Virus record (IMG/VR): IMGVR_UViG_3300032103_000073
Reading direction: 5' to 3' (one strand)
Length of the DNA: 64,000 nucleotides
Origin: a virus
Lineage: Duplodnaviria > Heunggongvirae > Uroviricota > Caudoviricetes
Below, in pieces: positions 1-44,761 of this stretch (position 1 is its first letter; each line of letters begins with the position of its first letter). The notes below the pieces were generated by a model. The model was not told the DNA's origin. It did no database searches and saw only the letters and a list, made by a program, of their open reading frames with translations. The translations under genes and the position numbers were made by a program.

Positions 1-100
1 TTACTACATAACGCCTCCTACTATATTTTTACCAGAAGAAGGCATTAGGATTACTGTAATAGGTACCGATGAAGATTGGACAGAACAGTTAAGCGATGAT

Positions 101-406
101 TTGGAAAATACCTTCCCAACCGTACCAATGACTTTTTATCATTTGGATGACAGAACAAGCGACAATTGGCAATGGCTTTATCATATGGTTGACTCTAGTG
201 ATTTGATCATGGTAAATGTGGGACGTTGCACACCGTTGGAAGTAAACTTATCCTTGCTAACAGCAAACGGAAGTAAAGTTTGGTTTTATGTGGACAAAGA
301 GCTGGTTGACAAAGACCTTAGAATATTGTTAAATAGCATAAATGCAAATGTGTTTAACAACAGCGAACAACTTCACGCAATGCTTAGAAATTTTGTCGGC
401 GAATGA
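101..406 (+). CDS. hypothetical protein
   Basis: ORF whose stop overlaps the clpX start (ATGA). Confidence 0.4.
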   Translation: MENTFPTVPMTFYHLDDRTSDNWQWLYHMVDSSDLIMVNVGRCTPLEVNLSLLTANGSKVWFYVDKELVDKDLRILLNSINANVFNNSEQLHAMLRNFVGE

Positions 407-1641
407 CTGAAAAGACTAAACCTTTAATGTGTTGCAGTTTTTGCGACAAAAATCAAAACGAAGTTAAAAAATTAGTTGCAGGTAGCAAAGGTTATATCTG
501 CGATGAGTGTATTGTCTTATGCAACGAGGCAATTAAAGATGATATTGTAAAAACTTCTACTACCGGCGAACTGCCAAGTCCTCGAGAAATTTATCAACAT
601 TTAGATCAATATGTTATCAGCCAGGACATGCCTAAACTGTCACTAAGTGTTGCAGTTTACAATCATTACAAACGTTTACAAAATACCAGCGACATTGAAA
701 TTGAAAAAAGCAACGTGCTGTTTATTGGTCCCACTGGATCCGGCAAAACACTGCTGGCAAAAACAATTGCCAAGTTTCTTAATGTTCCTTTTGCTATCAC
801 CGATGCTACAAGTTTAACTGAAGCAGGCTATGTTGGCGAAGATGTTGAAAACGTTATACATAAACTTTATCAAGCAGCAGACAATAATATTGAACGTTGC
901 GAGCAGGGCATTATCTACATCGACGAAATAGACAAGAAGGGTCGCAAAAGCGAAGGTGCTAGCATTACACGCGATGTATCCGGTGAAGGTGTACAACAGG
1001 CCCTGCTAAAGATTATCGAAGGTACTGAATGTCGCGTTCCGCAAACAGGCGGACGAAAGCATCCAGGGCACGAGATGCTGACTATCAATACAAAAAATAT
1101 TTTGTTTATATTAGGCGGTGCATTTGTTGGTCTAGAAGAAGTTATCAATAAGAGAATCAACACTGGTTCTACTATTGGCTTTGGACCGGCAGACTCTAGA
1201 AAGAAACCTAACCTAAATCAAGTAATACACGAAGATGTGATCAAATGGGGAATTATTCCCGAGCTTGCTGGACGCATGCCAAAGATCGCAGTGTTAGAAG
1301 AACTAACAGAAGAACAATTGGTTCGCTCTATGAAGGAACCAAAAAACAGTATCATAAGTCAATATCAAGAGCTATTCCGCATGGACGGGGTTGAGTTGAT
1401 AATAGATGATAGTGCATGCCGCGCTATTGCTAGAAAATGCTTGACTATGAAATTAGGCGCCCGTGGCCTTAGAGCAGAATTGGAATCTGTACTCTTAAAA
1501 ACACAATTTGTCTTGCCTGATTTAGCCAACGAAAATGTTGCTAAAGTCACAATAACCGAGGAAACAGTCAACCAAGGCAAGGAACCACTACTAGTATATG
1601 GCAACAAACGTAAAAAGACAAGAGAACAGAGTTCTCAGTAA
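403..1641 (+). CDS. clpX: ClpX-like AAA+ unfoldase
   Basis: N-terminal C4 zinc finger (CxxC...CxxC), Walker A GPTGSGKT, overall ClpX-like architecture. Confidence 0.9.
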   Translation: MTEKTKPLMCCSFCDKNQNEVKKLVAGSKGYICDECIVLCNEAIKDDIVKTSTTGELPSPREIYQHLDQYVISQDMPKLSLSVAVYNHYKRLQNTSDIEIEKSNVLFIGPTGSGKTLLAKTIAKFLNVPFAITDATSLTEAGYVGEDVENVIHKLYQAADNNIERCEQGIIYIDEIDKKGRKSEGASITRDVSGEGVQQALLKIIEGTECRVPQTGGRKHPGHEMLTINTKNILFILGGAFVGLEEVINKRINTGSTIGFGPADSRKKPNLNQVIHEDVIKWGIIPELAGRMPKIAVLEELTEEQLVRSMKEPKNSIISQYQELFRMDGVELIIDDSACRAIARKCLTMKLGARGLRAELESVLLKTQFVLPDLANENVAKVTITEETVNQGKEPLLVYGNKRKKTREQSSQ

Positions 1642-2137
1642 TAGAGAAATTCGCGCTCGCGAAGTTCGCTTGATCGATGCCGATGGCAGCAACGTCGGAG
1701 TTGTTGCTTACTTTAAAGCATTAAACTCTGCACAGGACCAAGGGCTTGACCTTATCCTAATCAACGGTGCTACAAATCCACCTGTTTGCAAAATAGGTGA
1801 CGTGGGCAAGTACAAATACGAAATGCAAAAGCGCCAAAAAGAACAGGATCGTAAAAATAGAGAAAATCGAGTTGAACTAAAAGAAGTGCAACTACGACCT
1901 GGTATCGGCGAGCACGACCTTGAAGTTAAAATGAAACACATCAAGGAATGGCTAACCGAAGGCGACAAGGTTAAGATTGTTATTAAATTCCGTGGTCGCG
2001 AAATGGCTAATACCGGTCAAGGTACCACAATTATAAATAATATTTTAGAACAAGTGCCCGCAGCTAAACTAGAAGGAACTAGCGAACTGCAAGGCAATAG
2101 AATGATAGCAACATTATTTCAAGGTAAAACAAAATGA
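1598..2137 (+). CDS. infC: translation initiation factor IF-3
   Basis: REIRAREVRL...PPVCKI...KFRGRE motifs typical of IF3; start overlaps the clpX 3' end by 44 nt in another frame. Confidence 0.85.
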   Translation: MATNVKRQENRVLSNREIRAREVRLIDADGSNVGVVAYFKALNSAQDQGLDLILINGATNPPVCKIGDVGKYKYEMQKRQKEQDRKNRENRVELKEVQLRPGIGEHDLEVKMKHIKEWLTEGDKVKIVIKFRGREMANTGQGTTIINNILEQVPAAKLEGTSELQGNRMIATLFQGKTK

Positions 2138-2370
2138 GTAAAAAACAAGGACCATTGATGGGTAGTACAGTTATTGTACAAAATGATAACTGGGAAAAAG
2201 CTCTGCGCATCTTTAAAAAGAAGATTACAGAAAGCGGCAAACTGATTGAACTTAAAGAAAAAGAGTTCTACGAAAAGCCCAGCGTGACCAAGCGCAAGAC
2301 AAAAAATCAACAGGCACGTAGAGCACAGAAGAAGCGTGAAGCTGACGCACTACCAAAGAAACTTTACTAA
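2134..2370 (+). CDS. rpsU: ribosomal protein S21
   Basis: ALRIFKKK...GKL.ELKEKEFYEKPS..KRK...ARRRAQKK signature; ATGA overlap with the infC stop. Confidence 0.85.
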   Translation: MSKKQGPLMGSTVIVQNDNWEKALRIFKKKITESGKLIELKEKEFYEKPSVTKRKTKNQQARRAQKKREADALPKKLY

Positions 2371-2675
2371 TGAGTAATACCATAGACTTGTCTAGCATTG
2401 AACCTGTTGCATTTGAATGGGATGACACTGCTACTACAATTGGAGTTGTAGCACAGGATATTTCTACTATAGCAGGAGTAGGGTCTGCTATTACTGTTTC
2501 TGCTAACAATTGGAATTCTTCTATTAGCTACACTGATCCATACGAAGCAATTGAAAAGAGATTAGCAGCAGTTGAATCGGTTTTGGCAGAAGAAAAAGCC
2601 ATTAGAGATAACTGTCCAGCAGTCAAACAGGCCTATGATGAATACCGACTTTTGCTTGAATTGGCAAAAGGATAA
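2370..2675 (+). CDS. hypothetical protein
   Basis: ORF coupled to the rpsU stop. Confidence 0.4.
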   Translation: MSNTIDLSSIEPVAFEWDDTATTIGVVAQDISTIAGVGSAITVSANNWNSSISYTDPYEAIEKRLAAVESVLAEEKAIRDNCPAVKQAYDEYRLLLELAKG

Positions 2676-2704
2676 TTGACAGGCTTACGAAATCAGCGTA
2701 TAAA
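2676..2704 (+). promoter_or_regulatory. sigma70-like promoter (TTGACA-N17-TATAAA) upstream of hsp20
   Basis: ttgaca 2676-2681, 17-nt spacer, tataaa 2699-2704. Confidence 0.6.
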
Positions 2705-2709
2705 TATAC

Positions 2710-2736
2710 TTGTACAACGCCATTAGGGTTGTACAA
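2710..2736. promoter_or_regulatory. perfect inverted repeat TTGTACAAC-N9-GTTGTACAA (CIRCE-like operator architecture)
   Basis: 9-nt arms with a 9-nt spacer immediately downstream of the -10 box and upstream of hsp20. Confidence 0.55.
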
Positions 2737-2780
2737 TGGGCACATTGCCCAAAACGTTCTTGCTTATTAAAGGAGAAAAT

Positions 2781-3218
2781 ATGAACGCACTTACACGATT
2801 TGACACTACAGCTCTTAACCAATTAAACAGAGCACTGGTTGGATTTGATCGCATGTTTAATGAACGAATCAATTCTAACCAATCTTACCCTCCCTACAAC
2901 ATCATCAAGAAAGATGACAACAACTATGAAATTGAAATCGCAGTTGCTGGCTTTACACTTGGAGAAATTGATGTTGAAGTGAATCAAAACATGCTAACAA
3001 TTTCCGGACAGCGTGATAGAGAAGAAGAAGAAGCAGATGTAGAATATCTACACCGCGGTCTTGCTTATCGTAGCTTTGAAAAGACACTAACTCTTGCAGA
3101 GCATATGGAAGTTGGAACTGCAAGTATTAAAGATGGCGTTCTACGAATTGCTATTACTAGGATCGTTCCTGAAGCACTAAAGCCCCGCAAGGTTGAAGTT
3201 ATCAGCTACGACAAGTAA
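2781..3218 (+). CDS. small heat-shock protein (Hsp20/alpha-crystallin family)
   Basis: alpha-crystallin-like core (IAVAGF...L.I); SD AAAGGAG before ATG 2781 (track ORF begins at 2736). Confidence 0.75.
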   Translation: MNALTRFDTTALNQLNRALVGFDRMFNERINSNQSYPPYNIIKKDDNNYEIEIAVAGFTLGEIDVEVNQNMLTISGQRDREEEEADVEYLHRGLAYRSFEKTLTLAEHMEVGTASIKDGVLRIAITRIVPEALKPRKVEVISYDK

Positions 3219-3228
3219 GCACTAAAAC

Positions 3229-3245
3229 GGGGGCACTGTGCCCCC
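3229..3245 (+). terminator. GC hairpin gggggcactgtgccccc (weak terminator)
   Basis: perfect stem after the hsp20 stop; no strong T-run. Confidence 0.35.
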
Positions 3246-3273
3246 AATTGATAAATACTTTTGAAAGTTAAAA

Positions 3274-3579
3274 ATGAGCGTAATGGCAGAAACAAGTCAA
3301 TCAACTAAACAAGACGTTGTTATCAAGCAACCTAGCATGTATAAAGTCGTGTTTAATAACGACGATGCAACTCCGATGGATTTTGTTATTGATTTACTCA
3401 AGGCAGTTTTTCATCAAGACGAAGACCGTGCTACCCAAACTACAATGGAAATTCACGAAAAAGGTCGTGGCATTGCAGGTGTTTATACTTTTGAAGTAGC
3501 AGAACAAAAGCACAGCGAAGCAACGTATATCGCCCGAAATAATGGGCATCCACTTAACATTAACCTAGAGTCTGAATAA
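3274..3579 (+). CDS. clpS: ClpS-like adaptor
   Basis: PSMYKVVFNNDDATPMDFVIDLL...ATQ...H..G.....FEVAE matches the ClpS core. Confidence 0.8.
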   Translation: MSVMAETSQSTKQDVVIKQPSMYKVVFNNDDATPMDFVIDLLKAVFHQDEDRATQTTMEIHEKGRGIAGVYTFEVAEQKHSEATYIARNNGHPLNINLESE

Positions 3580-3857
3580 TGGACGCAAAAACAAAAGAAA
3601 TCCTGGACATCACCCAAGAGGAATGTGCAGAAGTAGTAGTAGCCGTGAGCAAAATTAGCCGCTTTGGCATAGACAACGTTAAACCCGGTAAGCCTAAAAC
3701 AAACAGGGAACACTTGGAAGAAGAAGTAGGTGACTTGTTAGCTATGGTGGACTTGATGATTGAACATAAAGTTATTGACGTTAATAGCGTTAATCTAGCT
3801 CGTGCCGCCAAAAAAGACAAGCTAAAGCTGTGGAGTAATATCTACTCCGAAAATTGA
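3579..3857 (+). CDS. MazG-like nucleotide pyrophosphohydrolase domain protein
   Basis: EEVGDLLAMV-type MazG motif, small all-alpha protein. Confidence 0.5.
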   Translation: MDAKTKEILDITQEECAEVVVAVSKISRFGIDNVKPGKPKTNREHLEEEVGDLLAMVDLMIEHKVIDVNSVNLARAAKKDKLKLWSNIYSEN

Positions 3858-4267
3858 TAATATCAGTAGAAACCATGATATAATGTTGCGGTGCCAGATA
3901 AATAAGTAGAAACACTGAGTTTTTATTTAAGAAAGGCACCACAACATGCTATCACTTATTGCATACTTAATCAAACCGCTGATTAACGAACAGCAAAATC
4001 AACAAAATGATTTAGATCGTTATATAACCAGCAAACAGCCTACTACAACAGCAGAAGTAGAATACTGGCAACGAGAATATGATAAAAAACAATCTGTAGG
4101 AGGTTGGTTATCATGAAACATATTAAACAAATCTTTTGGGAATTTATATTAGAATATGCAGAGTATCGCCGAGCTCAAATTGAGCGCCGCGGTTATGCAA
4201 ACTGGTATTAATGCGTAGTTAATATTCTGCTGATACTGCTAAATATTTTATATAGGGGGTATTTGCA

Positions 4268-4696
4268 GTGCCAAGAAAACCAAACGTAACCCAAACTAAA
4301 CTGTTCAAAATGGTGCAACAGTTCGACGAATTTGACTGCAAATTTAGACCTACTATACAGGATTGTCGTAGCGTATTTCGTCAGATAAACAAGCAGGTAT
4401 TTAATAATGAATTAAAAATGCCAGCATTTAGATTAGTTTATTCTAGTGCATTTTGGGGTGAATGCACAGGCGATCAATATGACCAAACTAAATGCACTAT
4501 TAAAATGAACAAAAGCTTCTTATCTAAGAGGCTTTTTGTTTATACATTAGCACATGAAATGGTGCATCAATGGGAATGGTTAACCTATGAGAATATGACA
4601 CATGGCCCGAGATTCTTTATATGGCGAGAAGAATTAAGTAAATTCGGTATTATATTAAGTAGAAAATATCGAATAAAGCATTATAAGCTAAAGTAA
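4268..4696 (+). CDS. HExxH zinc-metallopeptidase-like protein (SprT-like)
   Basis: TLAHEMVHQWEW motif. Confidence 0.5.
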   Translation: MPRKPNVTQTKLFKMVQQFDEFDCKFRPTIQDCRSVFRQINKQVFNNELKMPAFRLVYSSAFWGECTGDQYDQTKCTIKMNKSFLSKRLFVYTLAHEMVHQWEWLTYENMTHGPRFFIWREELSKFGIILSRKYRIKHYKLK

Positions 4697-4719
4697 TACT
4701 CGAGTATTATCTAAATAAA

Positions 4720-4748
4720 TTGGCACAAATTGGGCTCCATGTTATAAT
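4720..4748 (+). promoter_or_regulatory. conserved early promoter (TTGGCA-N17-TATAAT)
   Basis: member of the repeated promoter family. Confidence 0.7.
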
Positions 4749-4754
4749 ACATAC

Positions 4755-5069
4755 ATGATGAAGCGCAAAACACGTTCCGACCGCAAGCATGCAATCTACG
4801 TTATTACTAACGTAGTTACTAAAGACCAATACATTGGTGTTACAGTTTGCTCAGGCAACCTTCGCAAAGCACTAAAAGTTCGCATGCAAAAGCACATCCG
4901 CCGCGCACTTACAGAAAACAAAGACTGGGCACTGTGCCGCAACATCCGTGACTACGGTGTTGAAGCATTTGAGTATGGTGTTGTTGAAACTGTGCGCGGC
5001 AAAGCGGCAGCTCACGCACGTGAGCGCGAGCTTACTCGCGTACATGCTCCTGTTTTGAACACACTGTAA
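4755..5069 (+). CDS. small GIY-YIG-domain protein
   Basis: IYVITN...YIGVT...R..E motif spacing. Confidence 0.5.
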   Translation: MMKRKTRSDRKHAIYVITNVVTKDQYIGVTVCSGNLRKALKVRMQKHIRRALTENKDWALCRNIRDYGVEAFEYGVVETVRGKAAAHARERELTRVHAPVLNTL

Positions 5070-5083
5070 AAGAAAGTATTACA

Positions 5084-5269
5084 ATGAGCTATTTGCGTTT
5101 TATTTGGTTTGTTGTTGAACGTGACGGCGTTCGTGAAGCTATTCGCTGGGCTGAAAACGCTAGCCCTATGCCCGGACGCCAAACCCTGCCTGAATACTGT
5201 GCAGATCAGGGTTATGCTATCATGTCAGGTCCTTACAAAACTCGCAAAAAGGCTCTTGAAAACTTATAA
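5084..5269 (+). CDS. hypothetical protein
   Basis: ORF. Confidence 0.35.
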   Translation: MSYLRFIWFVVERDGVREAIRWAENASPMPGRQTLPEYCADQGYAIMSGPYKTRKKALENL

Positions 5270-5271
5270 AT

Positions 5272-5300
5272 TGGCACAAATTGGTTTTGGCGCTATAATA
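5272..5300 (+). promoter_or_regulatory. conserved early promoter plus UTR cassette
   Basis: TTGGCA-N17-TATAAT followed by ACATACATAGCGTAACAAAACAGGAG and ATG 5332. Confidence 0.75.
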
Positions 5301-5331
5301 CATACATAGCGTAACAAAACAGGAGTTAAAG

Positions 5332-5544
5332 ATGTCGGCAAATCCAGGAGCTTTTATGACTTATGCAGGCTTGAAGAAGATGTTGGAGCAGATGACACCT
5401 GAGCAGTTGCAACAGAATGTAGTAGTCTATGCAGGAGACATCGACGAAACTATGCCTGTCTTTGGTACTTGTACAAATACTGAAGAAGAAATGGGCGAGG
5501 TGTTGGACACTGATCCCGAAGGTGCGTTCTTCCTGTTGGTTTAA
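5332..5544 (+). CDS. hypothetical protein
   Basis: ORF downstream of the UTR cassette. Confidence 0.5.
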   Translation: MSANPGAFMTYAGLKKMLEQMTPEQLQQNVVVYAGDIDETMPVFGTCTNTEEEMGEVLDTDPEGAFFLLV

Positions 5545-5639
5545 GGAGTAGAAAATGACCGCTATTACTAATCTCATTATCGTACTCATGCCGGTTATCA
5601 TCATGGGCCTATCAATCATTGTCAAGGATGGATTCTAAA

Positions 5640-5849
5640 ATGAACGAACGAATTTTATCACCACAACTACTCAAGTTAGTTCAAGATGCTGGCCCCGGGT
5701 ATTCGTTAGCCGATCCTAAATGGGTTAAAAAGTTCGCCGAGTTGATTGTCAGAGAATGTGCTATAATTGCTAATCGTGCTGAGAATACTGAAACCGAGAT
5801 ACGGTGTATGTATGATGTGATTACTGAACATTTCGGAGTTGAAGAATGA
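5640..5849 (+). CDS. FAELIVREC-family small protein
   Basis: KFAELIVRECA...EHFGVEE; paralogs at 5846, 33366, 60368 and 63139. Confidence 0.6.
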   Translation: MNERILSPQLLKLVQDAGPGYSLADPKWVKKFAELIVRECAIIANRAENTETEIRCMYDVITEHFGVEE

Positions 5850-6037
5850 ACGAACGAATTCAAGAACTCGCTGAACAGGCCAGCGACACTAGCGATTACG
5901 GACTTGAGTGTGTGACTGACAAATTTCTAGAACACTTTGCTGAGTTGATTGTTCGGGAGTGTGCTGATTTTGCGGCAAGTCAAGGATCCGGTTGGGAAGC
6001 AAGAAAATCAATTGAAAAACATTTCGGAGTTGAATGA
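5846..6037 (+). CDS. FAELIVREC-family small protein
   Basis: HFAELIVRECADF...KHFGVE; ATGA overlap with the upstream paralog. Confidence 0.6.
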   Translation: MNERIQELAEQASDTSDYGLECVTDKFLEHFAELIVRECADFAASQGSGWEARKSIEKHFGVE

Positions 6038-6206
6038 TGAAAACAATGTATGAAGTGATTATGATTGACGGGCACTGCCCGAGCGAAACCTGCTCCCTGG
6101 GCTTGTACTCGACTCGAGAGTCTGCTGAAATAACCATTGAGAAAGAGGCTCCTCAATATTCTGATCATATGATTTTTGAAATCGAAGAAAAGTATGTTGG
6201 CGAGTG
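6036..6206 (+). CDS. hypothetical small protein (56 aa)
   Basis: ATGA-coupled ORF not present in the track. Confidence 0.35.
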
Positions 6207-6219
6207 AATAGCAAATAAA

Positions 6220-6248
6220 TTGACACAAATTGATGTCTGCGTTATAAT
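6220..6248 (+). promoter_or_regulatory. conserved early promoter plus UTR cassette
   Basis: TTGACA-N17-TATAAT and GATACATAGCGTAAACAAACAGGAGTTAAAG before ATG 6281. Confidence 0.75.
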
Positions 6249-6280
6249 TGATACATAGCGTAAACAAACAGGAGTTAAAG

Positions 6281-6733
6281 ATGGGTACACGTTCGATTAT
6301 TGGTGTTATGCATGGTGATGTTTGCAAAAGCGTTTATTGCCATTGGGATGGCTATTTGGCTCACAACGGCAAAATCTTGCTGGACAACTACGACAGTGCT
6401 AAAGCCAATCACTTGGTTGCTTTGGGCGACATCAGCTCGCTTGCCGCCAAAATCGAAGTGCCTGATTTAGTTGAGCACACCTTTGACAAGCCCGCAGAAG
6501 GTATCACAGTGTTCTACGGTCGTGACCGTGGCGCGACCGGCACCGAGTTTCGTGTGTCACACACCTTCCAAGACTTCCTGGAACGTGCTGATAGTTGCGG
6601 CGCAGAGTATTACTATATTATGAAAGACGGTGTTTGGTACTGCGGTACTACTTACGCCTCGGGCGTTCTGGCTAACAAGTTGACTAGTTTGGCAGAAGCA
6701 ATTGCCCAAGAAGAATCTATGGCTACTATCTAA
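6281..6733 (+). CDS. hypothetical protein
   Basis: ORF; the track N-terminus MIHSVNKQELK is the translated UTR. Confidence 0.55.
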   Translation: MGTRSIIGVMHGDVCKSVYCHWDGYLAHNGKILLDNYDSAKANHLVALGDISSLAAKIEVPDLVEHTFDKPAEGITVFYGRDRGATGTEFRVSHTFQDFLERADSCGAEYYYIMKDGVWYCGTTYASGVLANKLTSLAEAIAQEESMATI

Positions 6734-7050
6734 TGGACTACGAAAAGCGTTATAACGAACAAGGACAAGTTGCAGTTCTAATCAGCCCGGGCTTCGGGGC
6801 TGGTTGGAGCACTTGGTCTGGCGAGCATGCAGAAGCTATGATCTTCGACAGCCGGTTGGTTGACTATGTCTTGCTCAACGATACTATAGGTTTGGGCGAA
6901 TACGCACAATCATTAGGCTACGACAGCTACATGGGCGGCGCCGAAGATGTTGAAGTGATTTGGGTAGATGCAGGTACTAGATTTGTTATTGAAGAATATG
7001 ACGGAAGCGAAAGCATCCTAACGTTTGAAGATTTGTCTTATATTGCATAA
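6733..7050 (+). CDS. hypothetical protein
   Basis: coupled ORF. Confidence 0.5.
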   Translation: MDYEKRYNEQGQVAVLISPGFGAGWSTWSGEHAEAMIFDSRLVDYVLLNDTIGLGEYAQSLGYDSYMGGAEDVEVIWVDAGTRFVIEEYDGSESILTFEDLSYIA

Positions 7051-7059
7051 GGATTAAAC

Positions 7060-7422
7060 ATGGCAGGCTATCAAGCAGTTTTAGAACTTCGTCGCATTGA
7101 AGCAGATCTGGATGCTATGGGTCTTATGCTTTGCAACCCTAAGCACGGTAGCTGGAGCGAAGAAACATATGGCGACCGTGCTGGAGTAAAGCCTAAAGAT
7201 GCAGATGCACTGCCTATCTACAGTCGTGATGCAGAATTGTTTACTGGCACACTAGAACAGATTCGTACTTGGATGATTGGTGTTAAGTGGGCACGTGAAT
7301 ATGACATGATGCTACGACTCTCTGACGACAAGAAGCGAGTAAAGAAAGAAGATGATTATCGCCATCGCGAAATGTTGCGCCGTCTGGCACACGACCACAC
7401 TAAAGTAAAAGAGGACCAATAA
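7060..7422 (+). CDS. hypothetical protein
   Basis: ORF. Confidence 0.5.
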   Translation: MAGYQAVLELRRIEADLDAMGLMLCNPKHGSWSEETYGDRAGVKPKDADALPIYSRDAELFTGTLEQIRTWMIGVKWAREYDMMLRLSDDKKRVKKEDDYRHREMLRRLAHDHTKVKEDQ

Positions 7423-25623: not shown

Positions 25624-26241
25624 ATGAGTTTAGTCCCAATGGTGCTCGAGCGTACAGGCAACAGCGAACGAGCAATGGATTTGTATAGCCGATTGATGCG
25701 TGACCGCATTATCTTGCTAGAAGGCGAAGTAGAAGATCGCATGGCTAACCTAATCGTAGCCCAGCTACTGTTTTTGGAAAGCGAAGATCCTGACCGCGAT
25801 ATCACTATGTTTATCAACAGCCCAGGTGGCAGTGTAAGTGCAGGACTTGCAATCTACGACACTATGAACTTTATCCGCCCCGATGTTGCAACTTATGTAG
25901 TTGGGCAAGCATGTAGCATGGGTTCGTTCCTTGCGCAAGCAGGAGCCAAAGGCAAGCGTTTTGTTCTACCCGAAGCTCGTACAATGATTCACCGGGTTAG
26001 TTCGGGCACTCGTGGTACCAGCGGAAGTGTGCATGTCCAGGACTTGCAGTTTGAAGATGCTCGTCGAAGCTTCGAGGAAAGTAAACGCATCAATGAACGT
26101 CTAACTCAACTTTACGTTAAACATAACACTGCTGGAAAAGGCTACGATGAATTGTTTAACGACATGAAGTTTGACACCTTCTTGAGCAGTCGAGAAGCAG
26201 TGGCATATGGTTTGGCTGATCAAGTTATTGAAAAACGATGA
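25624..26241 (+). CDS. clpP: ClpP-like serine protease subunit
   Basis: [15 protein letters not shown]......[10 protein letters not shown]...[10 protein letters not shown] matches the ClpP core with a Ser/His/Asp triad. Confidence 0.85.
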
Positions 26242-36819: not shown

Positions 36820-37003
36820 AGTAAGTAAGAACCCGTTAGAAAGAAACAGCTATATTATTAGCAAAGGTCTCGATTATAAAACCGAAGACTGGTTAGAACT
36901 AAAAGAATGGCTCGAGCAACAAGACCACTTTTATCTCAACGGCGGAGTGCTGCATTTTAAAAGCGACGAAGTCAGTATGATGTTTGCATTAAAATACCTA
37001 TGA
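36812..37003 (+). CDS. MF-x-LRWS-motif family small protein
   Basis: C-terminus ..VSMMFALKYL. Confidence 0.55.
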   Translation: MIKVSKNPLERNSYIISKGLDYKTEDWLELKEWLEQQDHFYLNGGVLHFKSDEVSMMFALKYL

Positions 37004-37617
37004 TTAAACTACTTGGAAAACTCCCTTTAAATCCTGTTATCGCTCTTAGTGGCGGTGTGGATAGTATGGCTGTGGCTGATTTTGTTAGTCGTAGCAGAAG
37101 TGTGCAATGTGCATTTTTCCATCATGGCACCGGGGTTAGTGATATTGCAGCCCAAGTTGTCAAGGACTATTGCCTCAAACGAGGTTGGCATTTGTTTATG
37201 GGTCATATCGTCAATGAACGACCTGAGGACATTAGCCCCGAAGAACACTGGCGTAATGAACGTTATGCGTTCTTAGATAACCTACAGCGTGATGTGATTA
37301 CAGGTCATCATCTTGACGACAGTGTAGAAACTTACCTATGGAGCACCTTGCACGGCACTGCTAAGGTTATCCCGTATCAACGCAATCGTGTAATTCGCCC
37401 GTTCTCTTTGGCAAAGAAAGAGGACCTAGAAGCATGGGCTGAACGAAACAACGTGCCTTGGGTTGAAGATTACACTAACGGTGATACTAAGTATATGCGA
37501 AACTATGTGCGACACAATATTGTTCCGCATGCTCTAGCAGTGAATCCTGGCTTGCACAAAGTGGTAGCACGTAAAGTTGAAGAACAATATCACAAAACAC
37601 TTGACACAAATTATTAA
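37000..37617 (+). CDS. tilS: tRNA(Ile)-lysidine synthetase-like PP-loop domain (TilS N-terminal catalytic domain)
   Basis: SGGVDS PP-loop; TGHHLDDSVETYLW and VIRPF...WVEDYTNGD..Y.RN motifs match the TilS core; 205 aa, catalytic domain only. Confidence 0.75.
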   Translation: MIKLLGKLPLNPVIALSGGVDSMAVADFVSRSRSVQCAFFHHGTGVSDIAAQVVKDYCLKRGWHLFMGHIVNERPEDISPEEHWRNERYAFLDNLQRDVITGHHLDDSVETYLWSTLHGTAKVIPYQRNRVIRPFSLAKKEDLEAWAERNNVPWVEDYTNGDTKYMRNYVRHNIVPHALAVNPGLHKVVARKVEEQYHKTLDTNY

Positions 37618-37630
37618 ATACTGCTATAAT
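37601..37630 (+). promoter_or_regulatory. conserved promoter driving the tRNA pair
   Basis: TTGACA-N18-TATAAT overlapping the tilS stop. Confidence 0.65.
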
Positions 37631-37650
37631 AGATACAATAAATAAAACAC

Positions 37651-37728
37651 TGCTCCTATAGCACAATTGGTTAGTGCAATCGACTCATAATCGATAGGTT
37701 ACTGGTTCGAGTCCAGTTGGGAGCACCA
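37651..37728 (+). tRNA. tRNA-Ile2 (anticodon CAT, lysidine type) or Met
   Basis: cloverleaf; anticodon arm ..TCGACTCATAATCGAT.. as in E. coli tRNA-Ile2; encoded CCA; adjacent to tilS. Confidence 0.8.
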
Positions 37729-37733
37729 AGATT

Positions 37734-37809
37734 TCTGGCGTTCGTTCAATGGATAGGACAAGATTCTTCTAAAGTCTTTATGGGGGTTCGATTCCCTCAC
37801 GCCGGACCA
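37734..37809 (+). tRNA. tRNA-Arg (TCT)
   Basis: cloverleaf; anticodon loop CTTCTAA. Confidence 0.75.
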
Positions 37810-37810
37810 A

Positions 37811-37850
37811 ACAAAAACAAAAACCCGCATAATGCGGGTTTTTGTTTTAT
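37811..37850. terminator. bidirectional rho-independent terminator
   Basis: A-run, cccgcataatgcggg stem, T-run. Confidence 0.8.
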
Positions 37851-38725
37851 CCATTATAGTTAAACGTCGAACGAACTAAAACACGCTCTCTTAATATATT
37901 AGGGTCGTCTTGATCTCGTTTGTGTATGGTCAAGATTTGATCCATCAGAATAATATCACCGGGCTCCCATGGGTGCGAATAGATAAACTTATCCTGAAGA
38001 CAGTGTTCTTTTAAATCTTCTAACAAGCATGGATCTTGCGGAAATGAGCACTTGTTATGAAAGTGAAAATATAATCCTTTTTTTCCTCTAAAGCTATCGT
38101 TGATCAACGGCATTTGATAAGGAACTTTATTTTTTGCCATAGCGTTATATTGATCTGCTGGTAATCCTTCTGCCCATATTTCGGGAGCATACTCAAAATT
38201 GCCCACTATGCCCTGGCAACGCTCTTTGAGGTCTGCAGGCATAGCTTCGTAAGCTAGTGTAGTATCCATGAAACTAGTGCTGGTCCCCTTAATGCCTTCG
38301 CTTACACCCTGCAAGGCAACACCGTTAGCCCTACCCGGTCCGTTGTAGTTGCTATGCCAGTCTAGTGTGCCGGTTCCGAATATACCACTGCGTTTGCCAT
38401 TTTTTATTTGTCCGGTTACTCGCTGCACAGGATACAGATCATCTATGCCTTCATAATTAAATGGATCGATAACTTCTTTGGCTTTGTTAAACAAGACATT
38501 ACCGTGAATGTCCCACGTGCATTGGTCCCAGTTAGCAACATTGCCTTGACCCATGCGATAAATTAGTTTCATATAAGGAACGGTTAGCCTGGGTTGATTT
38601 TTAAATACAACAACTAAATCGCGCAGCAGTGACTCTTTAATATCTACATAATCTTGTTCTGTTAGTTCTCGTATGTCGCAGTCGGAAATTTCTACGGCAC
38701 AATTGTTTAATGGTGTAATCTTCAT
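37847..38725 (-). CDS. TauD/TfdA-like Fe(II)/alpha-ketoglutarate dioxygenase (putative)
   Basis: WEPGDIILMDQILTIHKR C-terminal motif; 292 aa. Confidence 0.45.
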   Translation of the reverse strand: MKITPLNNCAVEISDCDIRELTEQDYVDIKESLLRDLVVVFKNQPRLTVPYMKLIYRMGQGNVANWDQCTWDIHGNVLFNKAKEVIDPFNYEGIDDLYPVQRVTGQIKNGKRSGIFGTGTLDWHSNYNGPGRANGVALQGVSEGIKGTSTSFMDTTLAYEAMPADLKERCQGIVGNFEYAPEIWAEGLPADQYNAMAKNKVPYQMPLINDSFRGKKGLYFHFHNKCSFPQDPCLLEDLKEHCLQDKFIYSHPWEPGDIILMDQILTIHKRDQDDPNILRERVLVRSTFNYNG

Positions 38726-38779
38726 ATGTTTATTTAATCAATAGAGCCTGTAAGCTAGAAAAGTCTAATAAATATTTGC

Positions 38780-39568
38780 ATGTCATATTCTAAAATCATA
38801 ACAAACAAACTAGCTTCTAATACAGAATTTTTACCTTACATTCAATTGGCAGCAACTGCACTGGTTGCAGCATTTGTTATATTTTATCCCCAGTCTCATG
38901 CAGGATGGCTAACAGCAGTTCTTATGTATGCGGCGATTGGCTGTTTTGGCATTAGCATTGGTTATCATAGACTACTAACGCATAAGAGTTTTAAGACTAC
39001 AAAATTTTGGGAATATTTTTGTGCCTTGTGGGGAACATTGGCATTTACTGGCAGTGCGATAGGTTGGGTAGGCATGCACAGAGACCATCACAAATACAGC
39101 GACAAGCCGGGTGACCCGCATAGTCCAGTAGTTCGCAGCTGGCGCATGCTAGTAGCAGCTTACGATTATGCCCCGGATAAATGGAAGATTCGCCATTTAA
39201 TCTTTGATAAATTTCACGTCTTTATTCACACTTGGTATTTTGGTTTATTGTTAGCATGGACAGCTTTTTGGTTTTCACTTGGTGGAATAGCATTAGCTAT
39301 GTATGTGGTTATTATCCCTGCGGTAATTAGCGTTTGGGTTAGCACTACTAGCAACTATATGAACCACAAATGGGGATATAGGAATTTTGAAACAACAGAT
39401 AACAGCCGCAACCTTTGGTTTAATGCAGTCTTTACATTTGGAGAAGGATGGCATAACAACCATCACGCTCGCCCGGGTAATTATGACTTTGGATCTGGTA
39501 CTAGTGGCAAGTGGTGGGAATTTGATCCCGGTGCTAGAATTATAGAATTGATACGATCTTGCAAATAA
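38780..39568 (+). CDS. membrane fatty-acid desaturase/hydroxylase family protein
   Basis: three His boxes HRLLTH, HRDHH and HNNHH; four TM helices. Confidence 0.7.
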   Translation: MSYSKIITNKLASNTEFLPYIQLAATALVAAFVIFYPQSHAGWLTAVLMYAAIGCFGISIGYHRLLTHKSFKTTKFWEYFCALWGTLAFTGSAIGWVGMHRDHHKYSDKPGDPHSPVVRSWRMLVAAYDYAPDKWKIRHLIFDKFHVFIHTWYFGLLLAWTAFWFSLGGIALAMYVVIIPAVISVWVSTTSNYMNHKWGYRNFETTDNSRNLWFNAVFTFGEGWHNNHHARPGNYDFGSGTSGKWWEFDPGARIIELIRSCK

Positions 39569-40077
39569 TTATAAGTTGCACTTGAATCTAGTAAAATTTG
39601 CAAAAAAGAAAAATCGCTGTCGCTATTATTTACAAACATCCCTTTTAATGAGCGGTCTATAATAAAAGGTAGTGGCTGAAGATTATGTTTCTCTGCTTTA
39701 CTTTTATCGTTATTGGCACTAAAATAATTAACGTCAATAGTTCCCGGCGTTAGTGGGATATATAACTCAACTGAAGTTTTGACATCATTGACATACAAAT
39801 CGATAAATCCTTTGCGCTTTTTCGGGTGCATATTATAAAGCATTATTCTTGAAATATTTAAATTGCAATTACTTATGAAATTAAAAATCTCGTAAGTGTG
39901 TAATCGATCATATTGGATGAATTTATTTTTAATATTTTTTGAATGGGACCCCCAGTCGAATTGACAAGAAGATCGGTCTTTTATGACCTCTATATCCGAT
40001 TGCAGCAATTGATAAAAATCAACCGAAGCTTTATGGTCTTGAAAAAAAGTTATTGACATTATTCTAAAAAATAACAA
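39481..40077 (-). CDS. hypothetical protein
   Basis: minus-strand ORF in the island. Confidence 0.4.
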   Translation of the reverse strand: MLFFRIMSITFFQDHKASVDFYQLLQSDIEVIKDRSSCQFDWGSHSKNIKNKFIQYDRLHTYEIFNFISNCNLNISRIMLYNMHPKKRKGFIDLYVNDVKTSVELYIPLTPGTIDVNYFSANNDKSKAEKHNLQPLPFIIDRSLKGMFVNNSDSDFSFLQILLDSSATYNYLQDRINSIILAPGSNSHHLPLVPDPKS

Positions 40078-41240
40078 TGGCTAGTAGATCGAACTAGGCC
40101 GTATTTTATACCCTTCATGCTTGTCCATTCGGGTCCTGCAATTTGTTGCAATTTTTTAATCCCGTTTGTATATATTCTCCTCTGCTCGCTATGTTCGTCT
40201 TTTAAAAACCAAGCGTCACGAGGACTCCACATTAACAAAAAATCATCTTTACCGCTACTATAAGTGTCAGTATTCCAATCTGGATATACAATACGATGTA
40301 ATCCGTTGTTTGTTAGATAAATGAATGTATTGTTATATTTGGCTTTTCCTAACACATTATATTCCGGCGTTAGCCAACCAGCCTTGACATCGTATTCTGG
40401 CACATTTTTTAAATAGTTCATGACTAAATGGCCCTGCTTACATAGTATGTCACATGCATCTGGACTCCAGTAAAAAAACTCATCATTTTCCCAACTTCTG
40501 TTTAGTTCCTGAGTTAAAGGGTTAACGGCATTATCTACAATGTCTATGAAGTTAATTGCATATTTGTTGTTTATTAAATTAACACGCGGTTTATCAATAC
40601 CCCAAACAAAGCAAACAGATTTTCCTTTCGAGTACAAGTCTAAATAATCTTTTTCTTGTTCCCTGATATATCGTCTTGCTTGTTGATTTGGACTAAAAAC
40701 AGCATTTGATTTATACAAGAAATCAAATTTATTGTTATCTTTTGAAAACAAGTCTTTTTGATAGTCTAAATGATCTACTAACCGGAATTTGGTCAATGGG
40801 CTATGTTCTAGCAATTGTTTTGCTACCGGCATTGCAACTCTACTAACTTCACTATTTAAATAAGTGTCCCAACTTCCATCACCGCCGAAATTATGAAAGG
40901 TTGCAATTTCATCTACAAACAGACCTTGATCAACAAATGCTCGTAGCATTGTATAACTGTCTGCTCCACCGGACCACCAAAGCACTATGTAATCATAACG
41001 TTCTCTAATTTGCCTTGCTCGTTTTTGATAAAGAGTTCTTAAGTCCTCGGTTGGTTCGATTTTCCAATTATATGATGCAAATTCATAGTCATTGAAATTC
41101 CAATGTATCTTGTCTACATTATTTTTTTTAGCTGCTTCTATAGCAGATACTTTGCTATAGAATTTCAAATCATTGACTTGATAAAAGCCAAATTTATCTT
41201 TAGACAAATAAGGCTTTGAAATAAGCGAATCGTAGGTCAT
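40059..41240 (-). CDS. PP-loop (SGGxDS) ATP-pyrophosphatase-like protein
   Basis: IVLWWSGGADSYTML motif; 393 aa. Confidence 0.5.
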   Translation of the reverse strand: MTYDSLISKPYLSKDKFGFYQVNDLKFYSKVSAIEAAKKNNVDKIHWNFNDYEFASYNWKIEPTEDLRTLYQKRARQIRERYDYIVLWWSGGADSYTMLRAFVDQGLFVDEIATFHNFGGDGSWDTYLNSEVSRVAMPVAKQLLEHSPLTKFRLVDHLDYQKDLFSKDNNKFDFLYKSNAVFSPNQQARRYIREQEKDYLDLYSKGKSVCFVWGIDKPRVNLINNKYAINFIDIVDNAVNPLTQELNRSWENDEFFYWSPDACDILCKQGHLVMNYLKNVPEYDVKAGWLTPEYNVLGKAKYNNTFIYLTNNGLHRIVYPDWNTDTYSSGKDDFLLMWSPRDAWFLKDEHSEQRRIYTNGIKKLQQIAGPEWTSMKGIKYGLVRSTSHCYFLE

Positions 41241-41269
41241 AAGTAAGTGTATAATTAACTTTATTTATT

Positions 41270-42196: not shown

Positions 42197-42205
42197 GGAG
42201 ATACT

Positions 42206-42565
42206 ATGTTTACTTTAACGATTACAACAACAAGACCTGATACTTCTGCACCGTTTTTTCCGCATTCGCCGGCTGGGCGTTTATACGAAGAAACTTCGCA
42301 AGAACTAATGTTAGAAAGAAATAGTAGCATGCACAATAAACTCGTAGAGTTTACAAGGGTAGAATCGACTGACCATTTAACATTAATAACGACTCTTGTG
42401 TTTGAAAACGTCGAAGGTAGGAAAATATACGGAGATACGCTACTAAGTAGATTATTAGAAAAAAATCTATTAGCAATAGCATCCGCCAGGGAATTATACA
42501 ATCAAACAGTAAATCACGTCAGTACTGTAGAGGTTAAAAACGAAGGTTCTAATACACCGAATTGA
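42206..42565 (+). CDS. hypothetical protein
   Basis: ORF. Confidence 0.4.
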   Translation: MFTLTITTTRPDTSAPFFPHSPAGRLYEETSQELMLERNSSMHNKLVEFTRVESTDHLTLITTLVFENVEGRKIYGDTLLSRLLEKNLLAIASARELYNQTVNHVSTVEVKNEGSNTPN

Positions 42566-42645
42566 CCCTTATTTGTAAAATAGAGTAAACGACTAAGTCG
42601 TTTACTCAGTAGGCAAGCATAAAATAAAAGATTGCAATGTAGACT

Positions 42646-43933: not shown

Positions 43934-43938
43934 AATAA

Positions 43939-43967
43939 TTGACACAAAGGCTAAATAGAAGTACAAT
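43939..43967 (+). promoter_or_regulatory. promoter (TTGACA-N17-TACAAT)
   Basis: upstream of tRNA-Thr. Confidence 0.6.
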
Positions 43968-43975
43968 AACAACAT

Positions 43976-44052
43976 TGCTGGATTAGCTCAGTTGGTAGAG
44001 CACTCGCCTTGTAAGCGAAAGGTCGTCAGTTCGAACCCGACATCCAGCACCA
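43976..44052 (+). tRNA. tRNA-Thr (TGT)
   Basis: cloverleaf; loop CTTGTAA; CCA encoded. Confidence 0.8.
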
Positions 44053-44086
44053 AAGTTAAATTTTTTATCTATTTTGCCAAAAGATA

Positions 44087-44760: not shown

Positions 44761-44761
44761 T

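Follow-up and report, generated by a model that had tools for sequence, protein, structure and literature searches.

The 64,000-nucleotide stretch of viral DNA analysed here (the window) opens with a series of plus-strand genes in which the sequence-only reading had recognized ClpX, IF3, S21, Hsp20, ClpS and MazG, with a ClpP encoded further downstream. All of these identifications hold, and each ORF is found on the plus strand at the coordinates given. In HMM searches, ClpX, IF3 and bS21 score above the NCBI equivalog cut-offs, while ClpS, Hsp20 and the MazG-like protein pass those of Pfam, and a PHROG family exists for every cassette member except orf101. The putatively coupled chain begins upstream of the window with a 388-aa ORF, followed by orfA (2-406, plus strand), which encodes a 140-aa protein whose first ~6 codons also lie upstream. 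The clpX gene (403-1641, plus strand) encodes a full-length, cellular-type AAA+ unfoldase of 412 aa (NF003745, 551 bits, cut-off 359; TIGR00382, 523 bits). It exhibits the zf-C4_ClpX domain (a C4 zinc finger), Walker A (GPTGSGKT) and Walker B (YIDEIDK) motifs, the GYVG pore loop, the RKH loop, the IGF ClpP-docking loop and the GARGLR sensor-2. The next gene, infC (1598-2137, plus strand), starts with ATG and encodes a two-domain IF3 (TIGR00168, 167 bits, cut-off 60; IF3_N, 96.5 bits; IF3_C, 90 bits in the profile search). This protein aligns to residues 13-175 of the 180-aa chain 8jsg_A, which we take to be E. coli IF3, and conserves the FRGRE motif.

Downstream of infC, rpsU (2134-2370, plus strand) encodes ribosomal protein bS21 (TIGR00030, 56.9 bits, cut-off 28.95), with a basic N-terminal extension of eight residues, MSKKQGPL; bS21 chains of known structure match it from residue 9 onward. 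Phage bS21 copies generally carry such N-terminal extensions, 8-25 residues in length, and many keep the C-terminal KKLY/RMY. Between rpsU and hsp20 lies orf101 (2370-2675, plus strand), a conserved but fast-evolving ORF with no match in Pfam, NCBIfam or PHROG; it has only four homologues among 5.8 billion proteins, and its positional counterpart in the close clade displays 37-51% identity. The hsp20 gene (2781-3218, plus strand) encodes an IbpA/IbpB-like small heat-shock protein (PF00011, 68.8 bits, cut-off 20.8; PHROG 432, 138.7 bits), scoring 116 bits with the IbpA model, under its equivalog cut-off of 212. Its start is most likely ATG 2781 and not 2736, where the ORF opens, since AAAGGAG lies 7 nt upstream of the former and provides a Shine-Dalgarno (SD) site of its own. 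A G+C-rich hairpin 3' of hsp20 (3228-3246, no strand assigned; 8-bp stem, six G-C pairs) is likely a terminator or a transcript-end stabiliser; because the T-run is found on its minus-strand side, termination on the plus strand is only inferred. The clpS gene (3274-3579, plus strand) encodes an N-degron adaptor (PF02617, 99.6 bits, cut-off 23), which scores at most 102 bits with the NCBIfam ClpS models, under their cut-offs. It is followed by the mazG-like gene (3579-3857, plus strand), encoding a nucleoside triphosphate pyrophosphohydrolase (PF03819, 27.7 bits, cut-off 22; PHROG 4856, 82.4 bits). Further 3', a gene for a SprT-like metallopeptidase (4268-4696, plus strand; PF10263, 46.7 bits) follows the cassette here and in many relatives, with 68-82% identity in the close clade.

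As the sequence-only reading described, clpX, infC and rpsU are chained through overlapping stops and starts. The orfA/clpX and infC/rpsU junctions are both ATGA (403-406 and 2134-2137), and the rpsU/orf101 and clpS/mazG junctions are both TAATG (2368-2372 and 3577-3581). The infC start lies 44 nt inside the 3' end of clpX (overlap 1598-1641, plus strand), whose TAA stop occupies 1639-1641, the infC reading frame being +1 with respect to clpX. The alternative of an AUU start, as in bacterial infC, had been raised, but ATG 1598 is upheld: an in-frame TAG at 1592-1594, two codons upstream, makes it the only canonical start, and the next in-frame ATT (1649) falls within IF3_N.

Overlaps of 1 or 4 nt are found at 26 of ~113 same-strand junctions of the window in a crude gene call, and are thus not statistically unusual in themselves; the notable feature is their conservation across relatives. 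The 12 closest relatives all keep a clpX/infC overlap, 32-50 nt long, which is conserved on both sides (ClpX tail YGNKRKKTREQ.., IF3 N-terminus MA.NE.R.ENR), the end of the ClpX tail varying in length. In 53 of 58 loci tallied, infC has a canonical start that either overlaps the 3' end of clpX by 0-50 nt or directly abuts its stop, and in the relatives' loci the overlap of rpsU with infC is usually 4 or 8 nt. Of the window ORFs, 25% have an SD core ahead of them, versus 8% in the background. Such cores stand ahead of operon-first genes such as hsp20, clpP and an RF1-like gene, while they are missing or misplaced before clpX, infC, orf101 and mazG, and most internal chain members lack a well-placed site. 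From this arrangement we infer that orfA-clpX-infC-rpsU-orf101 may be translated by coupling. For termination-reinitiation, stepping back by 44 nt is a long way, which counts against it. Moreover, infC of phages Atu_ph07 and Phosso begins with GTG ~60 nt past clpX, without overlap and behind its own AAGGAG, which indicates that coupling is not obligatory. A different use of the overlap, as a programmed frameshift or transcriptional-slippage site yielding a ClpX-IF3 fusion, would fit the +1 frame of infC and the A-rich runs inside the overlap (CGTAAAAAGAC; A7-A8 in relatives L004 and L005). However, the A-run is replaced by AAGAAG in relatives L003, L010 and L013, the right frame offers no canonical slippery heptamer, a stimulatory structure is lacking (the overlap RNA folds no more strongly than shuffled sequences, z -0.15), and infC has its own conserved ATG straight after an in-frame stop. 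Together with overlaps of 0-17 nt in more distant relatives and the ~60-nt spacers of the cultured ones, this makes a fusion product extremely improbable.

The start codon also distinguishes phage infC from its bacterial counterparts. Phage infC genes start with ATG at ~42 of the tallied loci, TTG at 12 and GTG at 3, whereas the conserved N-terminal Ile of the 79 nearest bacterial loci is encoded by ATA (67), ATT (3) or ATC (2), and a canonical start is altogether absent from 40 of them. ATA and ATT belong to the codon class underlying IF3 autoregulation in E. coli, where infC starts with AUU. Beginning with AUG where its cellular relatives have AUA or AUU, the phage gene should be exempt from the autorepression by IF3 to which E. 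coli infC is subject. The proteins themselves are alike, both having two domains and aligning over their whole length to the solved E. coli and Thermus IF3s, but the neighbourhoods differ: bacterial infC sits in thrS-infC-rpmI-rplT, with thrS and rpmI as neighbours, and phage infC between clpX and rpsU. No clpX, rpsU, hsp20 or clpS was found within 6 kb of infC in 80 bacterial loci. Among 185,579 species-representative genomes, the closest cellular IF3s reach at most 49% identity and are nearly all alphaproteobacterial. In a neighbour-joining tree, 76 bacterial IF3s form one clade, with all phage IF3s outside it.

None of the 80 IMG/VR ClpX loci examined departs from the gene order clpX>(infC)>(rpsU)>hsp20>clpS (36 complete, 16 without rpsU, 13 without infC, 6 without both), and the comparison with other jumbo-phage modules suggested by the sequence-only reading recovers the same order in the cultured phages Atu_ph07, Phosso and PA5oct. 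The loss of infC or rpsU in many relatives implies that neither is essential to the cassette. This loss, and the frequency of short overlaps across the window, would suit neutral passengers, i.e., host-derived morons without a role in infection whose overlaps reflect mere genome compaction. This reading is very unlikely: colinearity holds down to ~42-50% ClpX identity, in phages of Alphaproteobacteria and of Pseudomonas, the catalytic and docking motifs are all intact, the members diverge in step (their identity follows that of ClpX, Spearman 0.63-0.78 in the IMG/VR loci), and the phage IF3s stand apart from the bacterial clade, which together point to long-term purifying selection.

A phage origin of the cassette is supported by its presence in cultured jumbo phages and in 80/80 IMG/VR relatives, and by its absence from the surroundings of infC in the 80 bacterial genomes. 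No capsid, terminase, portal, tail, packaging or other structural gene was found in the 64-kb window, so that the assignment to a phage depends on relatives and context. Megablast of the window against 50,697 phage records gave no match, whereas matches to jumbo phages appear at the protein level, and a 345,731-bp contig bears an IF3 99% identical to that of the window. The missing structural genes and the numerous cellular-type genes could suggest a piece of bacterial chromosome, a megaplasmid piece or part of another element, misread as phage. This is hardly credible given the low identity to any cellular IF3, the bacterial infC neighbourhoods, the cassette in cultured phages, the exclusive provenance of the relatives from IMG/VR, and the content of the window: 32 tRNA genes, homing endonucleases, a T4-type RNA ligase family and small, near-unidirectional ORFs.

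The sequence-only reading held that ClpS and ClpP complete a full phage-borne Clp system. As to ClpP (25624-26241, plus strand), the claim stands: it is of the cellular type, scoring 248.8 bits with NF001368 (cut-off 249) versus only 75.6 bits with the head-maturation-protease model. It can be aligned over its full length to ClpP chains of known structure, and its catalytic triad is intact: Ser (GQACSMG), His (MIHR) and Asp (DTFLS). It differs from bacterial ClpP by an insertion of ~10 residues and a score just under the equivalog cut-offs. The phage ClpX, with all its ClpP-docking motifs, is its presumed partner, and ClpX and ClpP by themselves form a complete protease, although clpP lies 22 kb from clpX, in contrast with the bacterial clpP-clpX operon. 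As to ClpS, the claim fails: ClpS is an N-degron adaptor of ClpA/ClpC, not of ClpX. The window ClpS exhibits NDDATPMDFV, EIHEKG and EVAEQK, motifs that we presume to form the N-degron pocket and the ClpA contact, yet the bacterial partner ClpA is missing from the 64-kb window, where no ORF exceeds the 412 aa of ClpX.

Agrobacterium phage Atu_ph07 and Sinorhizobium phages Phosso and AP-J-162, which are Polybotosvirus-like jumbo phages, hold the closest cultured homologues (ClpX 51-55%, IF3 38-45%, Hsp20 47%). Their clpX-infC(-rpsU)...hsp20...clpS region matches that of the window in gene content, order and single-strand orientation, but extra genes are interspersed (two hypotheticals, a thymidine kinase), and there is no detectable DNA identity to the window. 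The S21 homologue of Atu_ph07 is annotated merely as hypothetical (HMM E 8e-12). The published gene list of this phage includes IF3, ClpX, ClpS and Hsp20 (PMC7824862), and the adjacency of clpX and IF3 has been noted (PMC11242549). In Pseudomonas phages PA5oct and MIJ3 (Arenbergviridae; clpX-rpsU-x-x-hsp20-clpS), clpX and rpsU overlap by 14 nt and are followed by hsp20 and clpS as in the window, but infC is absent, ClpX is just 42% identical and the upstream neighbour of clpX is QueD instead of orfA. This lineage carries TilS (PMC7318152), which the window also encodes; the PA5oct omics paper does not discuss the cassette genes. IF3 and bS21 of huge phages, with a proposed role of redirecting or sustaining initiation, were described by Al-Shayeb et al. 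2020 (PMC7162821); they belong to the same families as those of the window, with basic N-terminal extensions of bS21 in both. Mizuno et al. 2019, as cited there, report phage-encoded translation proteins of these families. Chen et al. 2022 found Hsp20 and Clp genes among the commonest neighbours of phage bS21 (PMC9723584), but in their phages, with predicted Bacteroidetes hosts, bS21 lies amid structural genes and is expressed late, whereas the window copy belongs to a non-structural operon behind clpX and infC. Translation redirection by phage IF3/S21, the clpX-infC adjacency and the S21-Hsp20-Clp neighbourhood are thus already published, and a layout common to many giant phages makes the cassette a new example of a known feature, not a new type of system. 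Neither the coupled clpX-infC-rpsU arrangement nor the start-codon contrast is described in the literature searched, and two modest new points emerge from the sequence comparisons: infC and rpsU are almost always start/stop-coupled to the upstream gene, and phage infC uses ATG, GTG or TTG in place of the ATA/ATT of its nearest cellular relatives. Separately, the RF1-like gene (55281-55952) contains an in-frame TGA at a Trp position that is invariably conserved, a more novel lead than the ClpX-IF3-S21 cassette.

That the cluster serves host takeover, and not just the upkeep of translation and proteostasis, is a reasonable hypothesis, of a type already published for phage IF3/S21 (PMC7162821). 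In its selective form, phage IF3 and N-extended bS21 would build a phage-specialised 30S favouring phage leaders and start codons and disfavouring host mRNAs, with ClpXP removing host factors. The generality of basic N-terminal extensions in phage bS21, for which Al-Shayeb et al. proposed competitive ribosome binding (PMC7162821), the separation of the phage IF3 clade from all cellular IF3s (at most 52% identity) and the lack of SD sites before most coupled genes are in line with it. However, the IF3 core can be aligned over its full length to E. coli IF3 and has an intact FRGRE, and so looks canonical, not changed in specificity or dominant-negative; the operon-first genes still use SD sites; and infC or rpsU is absent in many relatives. 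Selective takeover is rather doubtful.

The reading that we favour, with a probability of roughly 0.6, is that the window carries its own copy of an ancient operon for proteostasis and translation initiation, which is inherited vertically and shared within a large group of T4-like jumbo phages, Atu_ph07, Phosso and PA5oct among them. Coupled translation of orfA-clpX-infC-rpsU-orf101 would tie the output of IF3 and bS21 to that of ClpX, and the AUG start of infC, through escape from autorepression, would let the phage raise the IF3 pool whatever the existing IF3 level. The phage IF3, together with the loosely bound bS21 and its basic N-terminal extension, would top up or replace the two exchangeable components of the 30S platform. 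Ribosomal subunits would in this way stay available and initiation-competent during the collapse of host gene expression or host starvation. ClpXP and Hsp20 would take the folding and degradation load, while ClpS would work via host ClpA or a ClpA from another part of the phage genome.

The genes at the start of the window form an uninterrupted series of ORFs on the plus strand, placed as in the sequence-only reading, and profile searches bear out every gene name proposed there for this cluster; the HMM searches for ClpX, IF3, S21 and ClpS support the IF3 and S21 assignments above curated cut-offs. ClpX (403-1641) matches NF003745 with 551.3 bits (cut-off 359) and carries a C4 zinc-finger domain. 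It is followed by IF3 (infC, 1598-2137; TIGR00168, 167.2 bits, cut-off 60) and bS21 (rpsU, 2134-2370; TIGR00030, 56.9 bits, cut-off 28.95; PF01165, 48 bits, cut-off 27). Downstream of orf101 (2370-2675), which matches no family and has only 4 homologues, are encoded Hsp20 (2781-3218; PF00011, 68.8 bits, cut-off 20.8; PHROG 432), ClpS (3274-3579; PF02617, 99.6 bits, cut-off 23) and a MazG-like NTP pyrophosphohydrolase (3579-3857; PF03819, 27.7 bits, cut-off 22; PHROG 4856). A PHROGs family exists for each member of the cassette, by which is meant the gene order clpX-(infC)-(rpsU)-hsp20-clpS, the genes in brackets being absent from some phages.

The motifs expected of cellular proteins are found in these products. 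ClpX possesses the N-terminal C4 zinc finger, the Walker A motif, a Walker B motif that reads YIDEIDK in translation, the GYVG pore loop, the RKH loop, the IGF ClpP-docking loop and the sensor-2 arginine. IF3 is made of two domains, both scoring above curated cut-offs (IF3_N, PF05198, 96.5 bits, cut-off 26.9; IF3_C, PF00707, 90 bits, cut-off 34.8); it can be aligned to residues 13-175 of the 180-residue solved chain 8jsg_A, which we take to be E. coli IF3, and it conserves the FRGRE motif. Binding to the 30S platform, 70S splitting and start-codon proofreading are predicted for this protein only from sequence conservation. Residues 9-66 of bS21 correspond to residues 1-57 of the solved bS21 chains 7qv1_b, 5nd8_u and 5myj_AU, of 57-58 residues (E about 1e-10). 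The phage bS21 copies in general have a basic N-terminal extension, and the copy of the window aligns to the solved chains from its ninth residue.

A ClpP, called cellular-type, is encoded at 25624-26241. Its scores against NF001368 (248.8 bits, cut-off 249) and TIGR00493 (239 bits, cut-off 308.6) are both just under threshold, while it reaches 75.6 bits against the ClpP-related head-maturation model, far below its NF001368 score. It aligns end-to-end to solved ClpP chains, with the Ser-His-Asp triad and an insertion of ~10 residues. ClpS harbors the N-degron pocket motif NDDATPMDFV and the His motifs, and falls short of the NCBIfam equivalog models (102 bits vs 143). The proposal that ClpS completes a full phage-borne Clp system proved wrong. 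ClpS serves ClpA/ClpC, and no ORF longer than 412 amino acids, hence no ClpA or ClpC, is present within the 64-kb window; ClpS would therefore act via the host ClpA or via one encoded elsewhere in the phage. The 140-residue ORF upstream of clpX (orfA) was considered as a response-regulator-type ClpX adaptor resembling RssB or CpdR. This assignment is unsupported: the predicted fold is flavodoxin-like, the best match is a nucleoside-deoxyribosyltransferase-like protein, an Asn occupies the position of the phospho-acceptor Asp, and orfA is absent from the cultured phages.

Direct reading of the junctions confirms the chain of overlapping stops and starts described from clpX to rpsU. OrfA and clpX share an ATGA at 403-406; the clpX stop (TAA, 1639-1641) lies downstream of the infC ATG at 1598, so that infC, read in the +1 frame, overlaps clpX by 44 nt; infC and rpsU share an ATGA at 2134-2137; and a TAATG is common to the rpsU/orf101 and to the clpS/mazG junctions. 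The coupled chain begins upstream of the window, as an identical contig extending further 5' (L001) shows a 388-residue ORF of no assigned function overlapping orfA. Three radical-SAM/SPASM proteins and a fragment of an AAA/nSTAND-like NTPase are encoded within positions 1-7160 of this contig, 5' of the window, along with GDSL lipase-like and phosphoribosyltransferase-like proteins (precomputed Pfam only). Shine-Dalgarno cores precede 25% of the ORFs of the window vs 8% of random positions, and are missing or misplaced before clpX, infC, orf101 and mazG. Hsp20 is separated by a gap of 105 nt, possesses its own AAAGGAG before the ATG at 2781 and is followed by a G+C-rich hairpin. Just 5' of it, a TTGACA-17 nt-TATAAA element (2677-2705) can be seen by eye; it is not in the list of the promoter scan because its last base is not T. 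This sigma-70 scan of positions 1-6000 was uninformative (16 sites vs 15.8 expected). Similar TTGACA elements are found 5' of infC in phages Atu_ph07 and Phosso.

The question whether infC starts at ATG 1598 or at a downstream AUU, as in bacterial infC, can be answered in favor of the former. An in-frame TAG is located two codons upstream of this ATG, the only canonical start of infC. ATT occurs in frame only once, at 1649, within the conserved IF3_N domain. A ClpX-IF3 fusion produced by frameshift or slippage was also rejected: the A-run is not conserved, the overlap shows no structure, and infC has its own conserved ATG. The RNA structure around the clpX/infC overlap is not significant (z = -0.15).

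An IMG/VR scan with ClpX returned 145 relatives, of which the best 80, on contigs of up to 518 kb, were fetched and searched by tblastn with the proteins of the window. The order clpX, (infC), (rpsU), hsp20, clpS is colinear and on one strand in all 80 of these loci. The cassette is complete in 36 of them, lacks rpsU in 16, infC in 13 and both in 6, and is cut by contig ends in the remainder. The identity of each member tracks that of ClpX (Spearman 0.63-0.78 in the same set), which fits inheritance as a block. The comparison with other jumbo-phage modules extends this order to the cultured phages Atu_ph07 of Agrobacterium, Phosso of Sinorhizobium and PA5oct of Pseudomonas. Atu_ph07, with a ClpX 55% identical to that of the window, encodes successively clpX, infC, an S21 homologue, two hypothetical proteins, hsp20, tdk and clpS; the S21 homologue is annotated only as "hypothetical" and was recognized by HMM (E 8e-12). 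Phosso exhibits clpX-infC (ClpX 51% identical). PA5oct, which belongs to a different family, exhibits clpX and rpsU overlapping by 14 nt, two further genes, hsp20 and clpS (ClpX 42% identical).

Start/stop coupling is the rule across these phage loci and not a local accident. In 53 of 58 tallied loci, a canonical infC start is found 0-50 nt inside the clpX stop or directly abutting it. The clpX/infC overlap amounts to 32-50 nt in the closest clade and elsewhere mostly to 4, 8 or 17 nt; the start of rpsU is usually located 4 or 8 nt inside infC and, in loci without infC, rpsU follows directly behind clpX instead. The coupling is not universal, however, since in Atu_ph07 and Phosso infC has a ~60-nt spacer, an AAGGAG and a GTG start.

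Bacterial loci present a different picture. In a scan of one genome per species, covering 185,579 species, the closest bacterial IF3 is at most 49% identical, and the best matches come nearly all from Alphaproteobacteria, e.g., Paracoccus, Rhodobacteraceae, Acetobacter and Micavibrio. In none of the 80 nearest bacterial infC loci are clpX, rpsU, hsp20 or clpS found within 6 kb of infC. Within a collection of 5.8 billion proteins, the IF3 of the window has relatives in ~95 metagenomic clusters at 59-99% identity, after which identity drops to 52% or less; a 99%-identical copy lies on a metagenomic contig of 345,731 bp. In a neighbour-joining tree, built without bootstrap, the 76 bacterial IF3s group together in a clade to which none of the 48 phage IF3s belongs. 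Together with this tree, the absence of the cassette genes around bacterial infC indicates that the cassette is specific to phages and joins genes that are not linked in bacteria. A single ancient acquisition from an alphaproteobacterium-like source probably gave rise to the phage IF3.

The start codons differ as well. Phage infC starts with ATG in ~42 loci, TTG in 12 and GTG in 3, whereas in the 79 nearest bacterial infC loci a conserved N-terminal isoleucine codon is ATA in 67, ATT in 3 and ATC in 2, and a canonical start is unavailable in 40 of the 79. The infC of the window does not display the AUU/AUA start that is a hallmark of cellular infC, a feature that bears on regulation and not on membership of the IF3 family. 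In E. coli, IF3 represses its own synthesis by virtue of the AUU start of infC. Having a canonical start, phage infC would be freed from such AUU/AUA-based autorepression and slaved to the translation of clpX instead.

Towards the other end of the window, an RF1-like gene (55281-55952, plus strand) lacks domain 1 and matches the RF1 model with 205 bits over positions 107-333 of 347, vs 122 bits for RF2 and 48.6 bits for PrfH. It keeps the PxT (PPT) and GGQ motifs. Its codon 36 is an in-frame TGA (55386-55388) that falls in exact register with the conserved Trp of "YAERKGW" in T. maritima RF1. All the related IMG/VR loci examined (L086-L165), whose RF1-like proteins diverge by 17-34%, conserve this TGA: each of 78 alignments shows TGA opposite TGA, and neither TGG nor another codon occurs at this position. 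A general recoding of TGA to Trp (code 4) was rejected for this window, where TGA otherwise acts as an ordinary stop: it ends 17 of 67 long plus-strand ORFs, including infC, and ORFs split by TGA are no commoner on the coding than on the other strand. A search of 60 relatives within 1.5 kb of the RF1-like gene revealed no tRNA(UCA). The gene looks like a case of programmed read-through of UGA, kept by selection, in a release factor whose motif predicts no recognition of this codon. A second domain-1-less RF1-like gene, ~42% identical, is located at about 690-1400 of LR756502.1 (L247), a 642-kb uncultured huge phage; the gene terminates with TAA and contains an in-frame TGA at codon 52, a position other than that seen in the window, which suggests that in-frame TGAs recur in the RF1-like genes of huge phages. 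In three relatives, a permuted tmRNA of the two-piece type is encoded 3' of the RF1-like gene and, in two of them, immediately adjoins it (L136, 1993-2315; L137, 2594-2963; L141, 1983-2446). This neighborhood links the RF1-like gene to ribosome rescue; as permuted tmRNAs are typical of Alphaproteobacteria, it also gives a hint of the host range. Literature searches did not find an RF1-like gene with a conserved in-frame TGA described, and this feature may be more novel than the cassette itself.

Translation and stress remain the theme in the rest of the window. The window encodes 32 tRNAs (37652-54390), interspersed with small ORFs and homing endonucleases, and ~114 of 140 crude ORFs lie on one strand. 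The homing endonucleases of the window include GIY-YIG (4755-5069 and 45226-45855) and HNH members. The longest ORF of an HNH endonuclease (54361-54993, TTG start) overlaps the 3' end of tRNA-Leu(gag) (54314-54390); its true start may be downstream of this tRNA, as the HNH domain begins at residue 114. The tRNA at 48346-48419 is called with a four-base anticodon, "gtaa", and may be an odd tRNA-Tyr, since no other tRNA-Tyr is present. A protein with the N-terminal domain of TilS, the tRNA lysidine synthetase (37000-37728; TIGR02432, 111.8 bits, cut-off 93.6), is encoded directly 5' of a tRNA(CAT), and the pair may represent a tRNA-Ile2 carried with its modifying enzyme; TilS has been reported in PA5oct and MIJ3 (PMC7318152). 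A dual-specificity-phosphatase-like protein (57162-57725), a SpoT/RelA-type HD hydrolase domain protein (59830-60366) that is a small alarmone hydrolase candidate, a P-loop kinase AAA_33 (60634-61179) and a T4 Rnl-type RNA ligase family protein (61497-62396) make up a possible RNA-repair and alarmone cluster (57162-62396). A TauD-like Fe(II)/2-oxoglutarate dioxygenase-like gene (37847-38725, minus strand) and a divergent DesA-family fatty-acid-desaturase-like gene (38780-39568), both scoring far below the equivalog cut-offs, are auxiliary genes of a kind unusual in phages.

No capsid, portal, terminase or tail gene is found within the 64-kb window, these structural genes being present in the cultured relatives, and megablast of positions 1-6000 against 50,697 phage records yields no match at the DNA level; the phage identity therefore rests on the relatives. 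A scan with the PA5oct major capsid protein gave, among its top 80, no contigs in common with the cassette list.

What can be read from the DNA is a set of intact cellular-type genes, an operon architecture and deep conservation. The phage would supply IF3 and a bS21 with a basic N-terminal extension, the two components of the 30S platform that are exchangeable, together with a ClpXP protease, a holdase and an N-degron adaptor. Jointly, these products would sustain proteostasis and the capacity for initiation in the course of infection, and such a maintenance role is the reading that we favor, with a probability of roughly 0.6. IF3 and S21 have been listed among the huge-phage genes proposed to redirect translation, and N-terminal extensions of S21 have been described (Al-Shayeb et al. 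2020, PMC7162821). A selective takeover of host translation, in the sense of the host-takeover cluster named by the sequence-only reading, is conceivable and would be the less probable role. Still more speculative, and improbable as a whole, is a mechanistic hand-off in which the linkage and coupling of clpX, infC and rpsU would go beyond mere co-expression. The phage ClpX(P) would strip or degrade host factors on the 30S platform (hibernation factors, host bS21 or IF3), the AUG-driven, non-autoregulated phage IF3 and the N-extended bS21 would refit the freed subunits, and the RF1-like gene and its programmed UGA would form part of this scheme. If true, jumbo phages would own a "ribosome re-awakening and refitting" module for infecting slow-growing cells.

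Few viral genes concern the ribosome itself; to our knowledge, the phage-encoded IF3 and bS21 belong to this small set, and their roles are so far putative. Several elements of the cassette have been reported separately. The IF3, ClpX, ClpS and Hsp20 of Atu_ph07 have been listed (Iyer et al. 2021, PMC7824862), clpX directly adjoins IF-3 in the Sinorhizobium phage AP-J-162 (PMC11242549), and the commonest neighbors of phage bS21 include Hsp20 (n = 127) and Clp genes (n = 50 and 47) (Chen et al. 2022, PMC9723584). A full-text literature search retrieved no paper treating phage ClpX, IF3 and S21 together, and the PA5oct omics paper does not mention the expression of Clp or S21. The cassette taken as a whole, its coupling and the contrast in start codons seem not to have been described and are increments on known ground: no new system is revealed, and scattered annotations become a defined, deeply conserved operon. 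This operon is available in two culturable, genetically tractable models, PA5oct for Pseudomonas and Atu_ph07 for Agrobacterium. Should the escape of phage infC from autorepression be confirmed, it would explain how jumbo phages sustain initiation capacity after host shut-off or in starved hosts.
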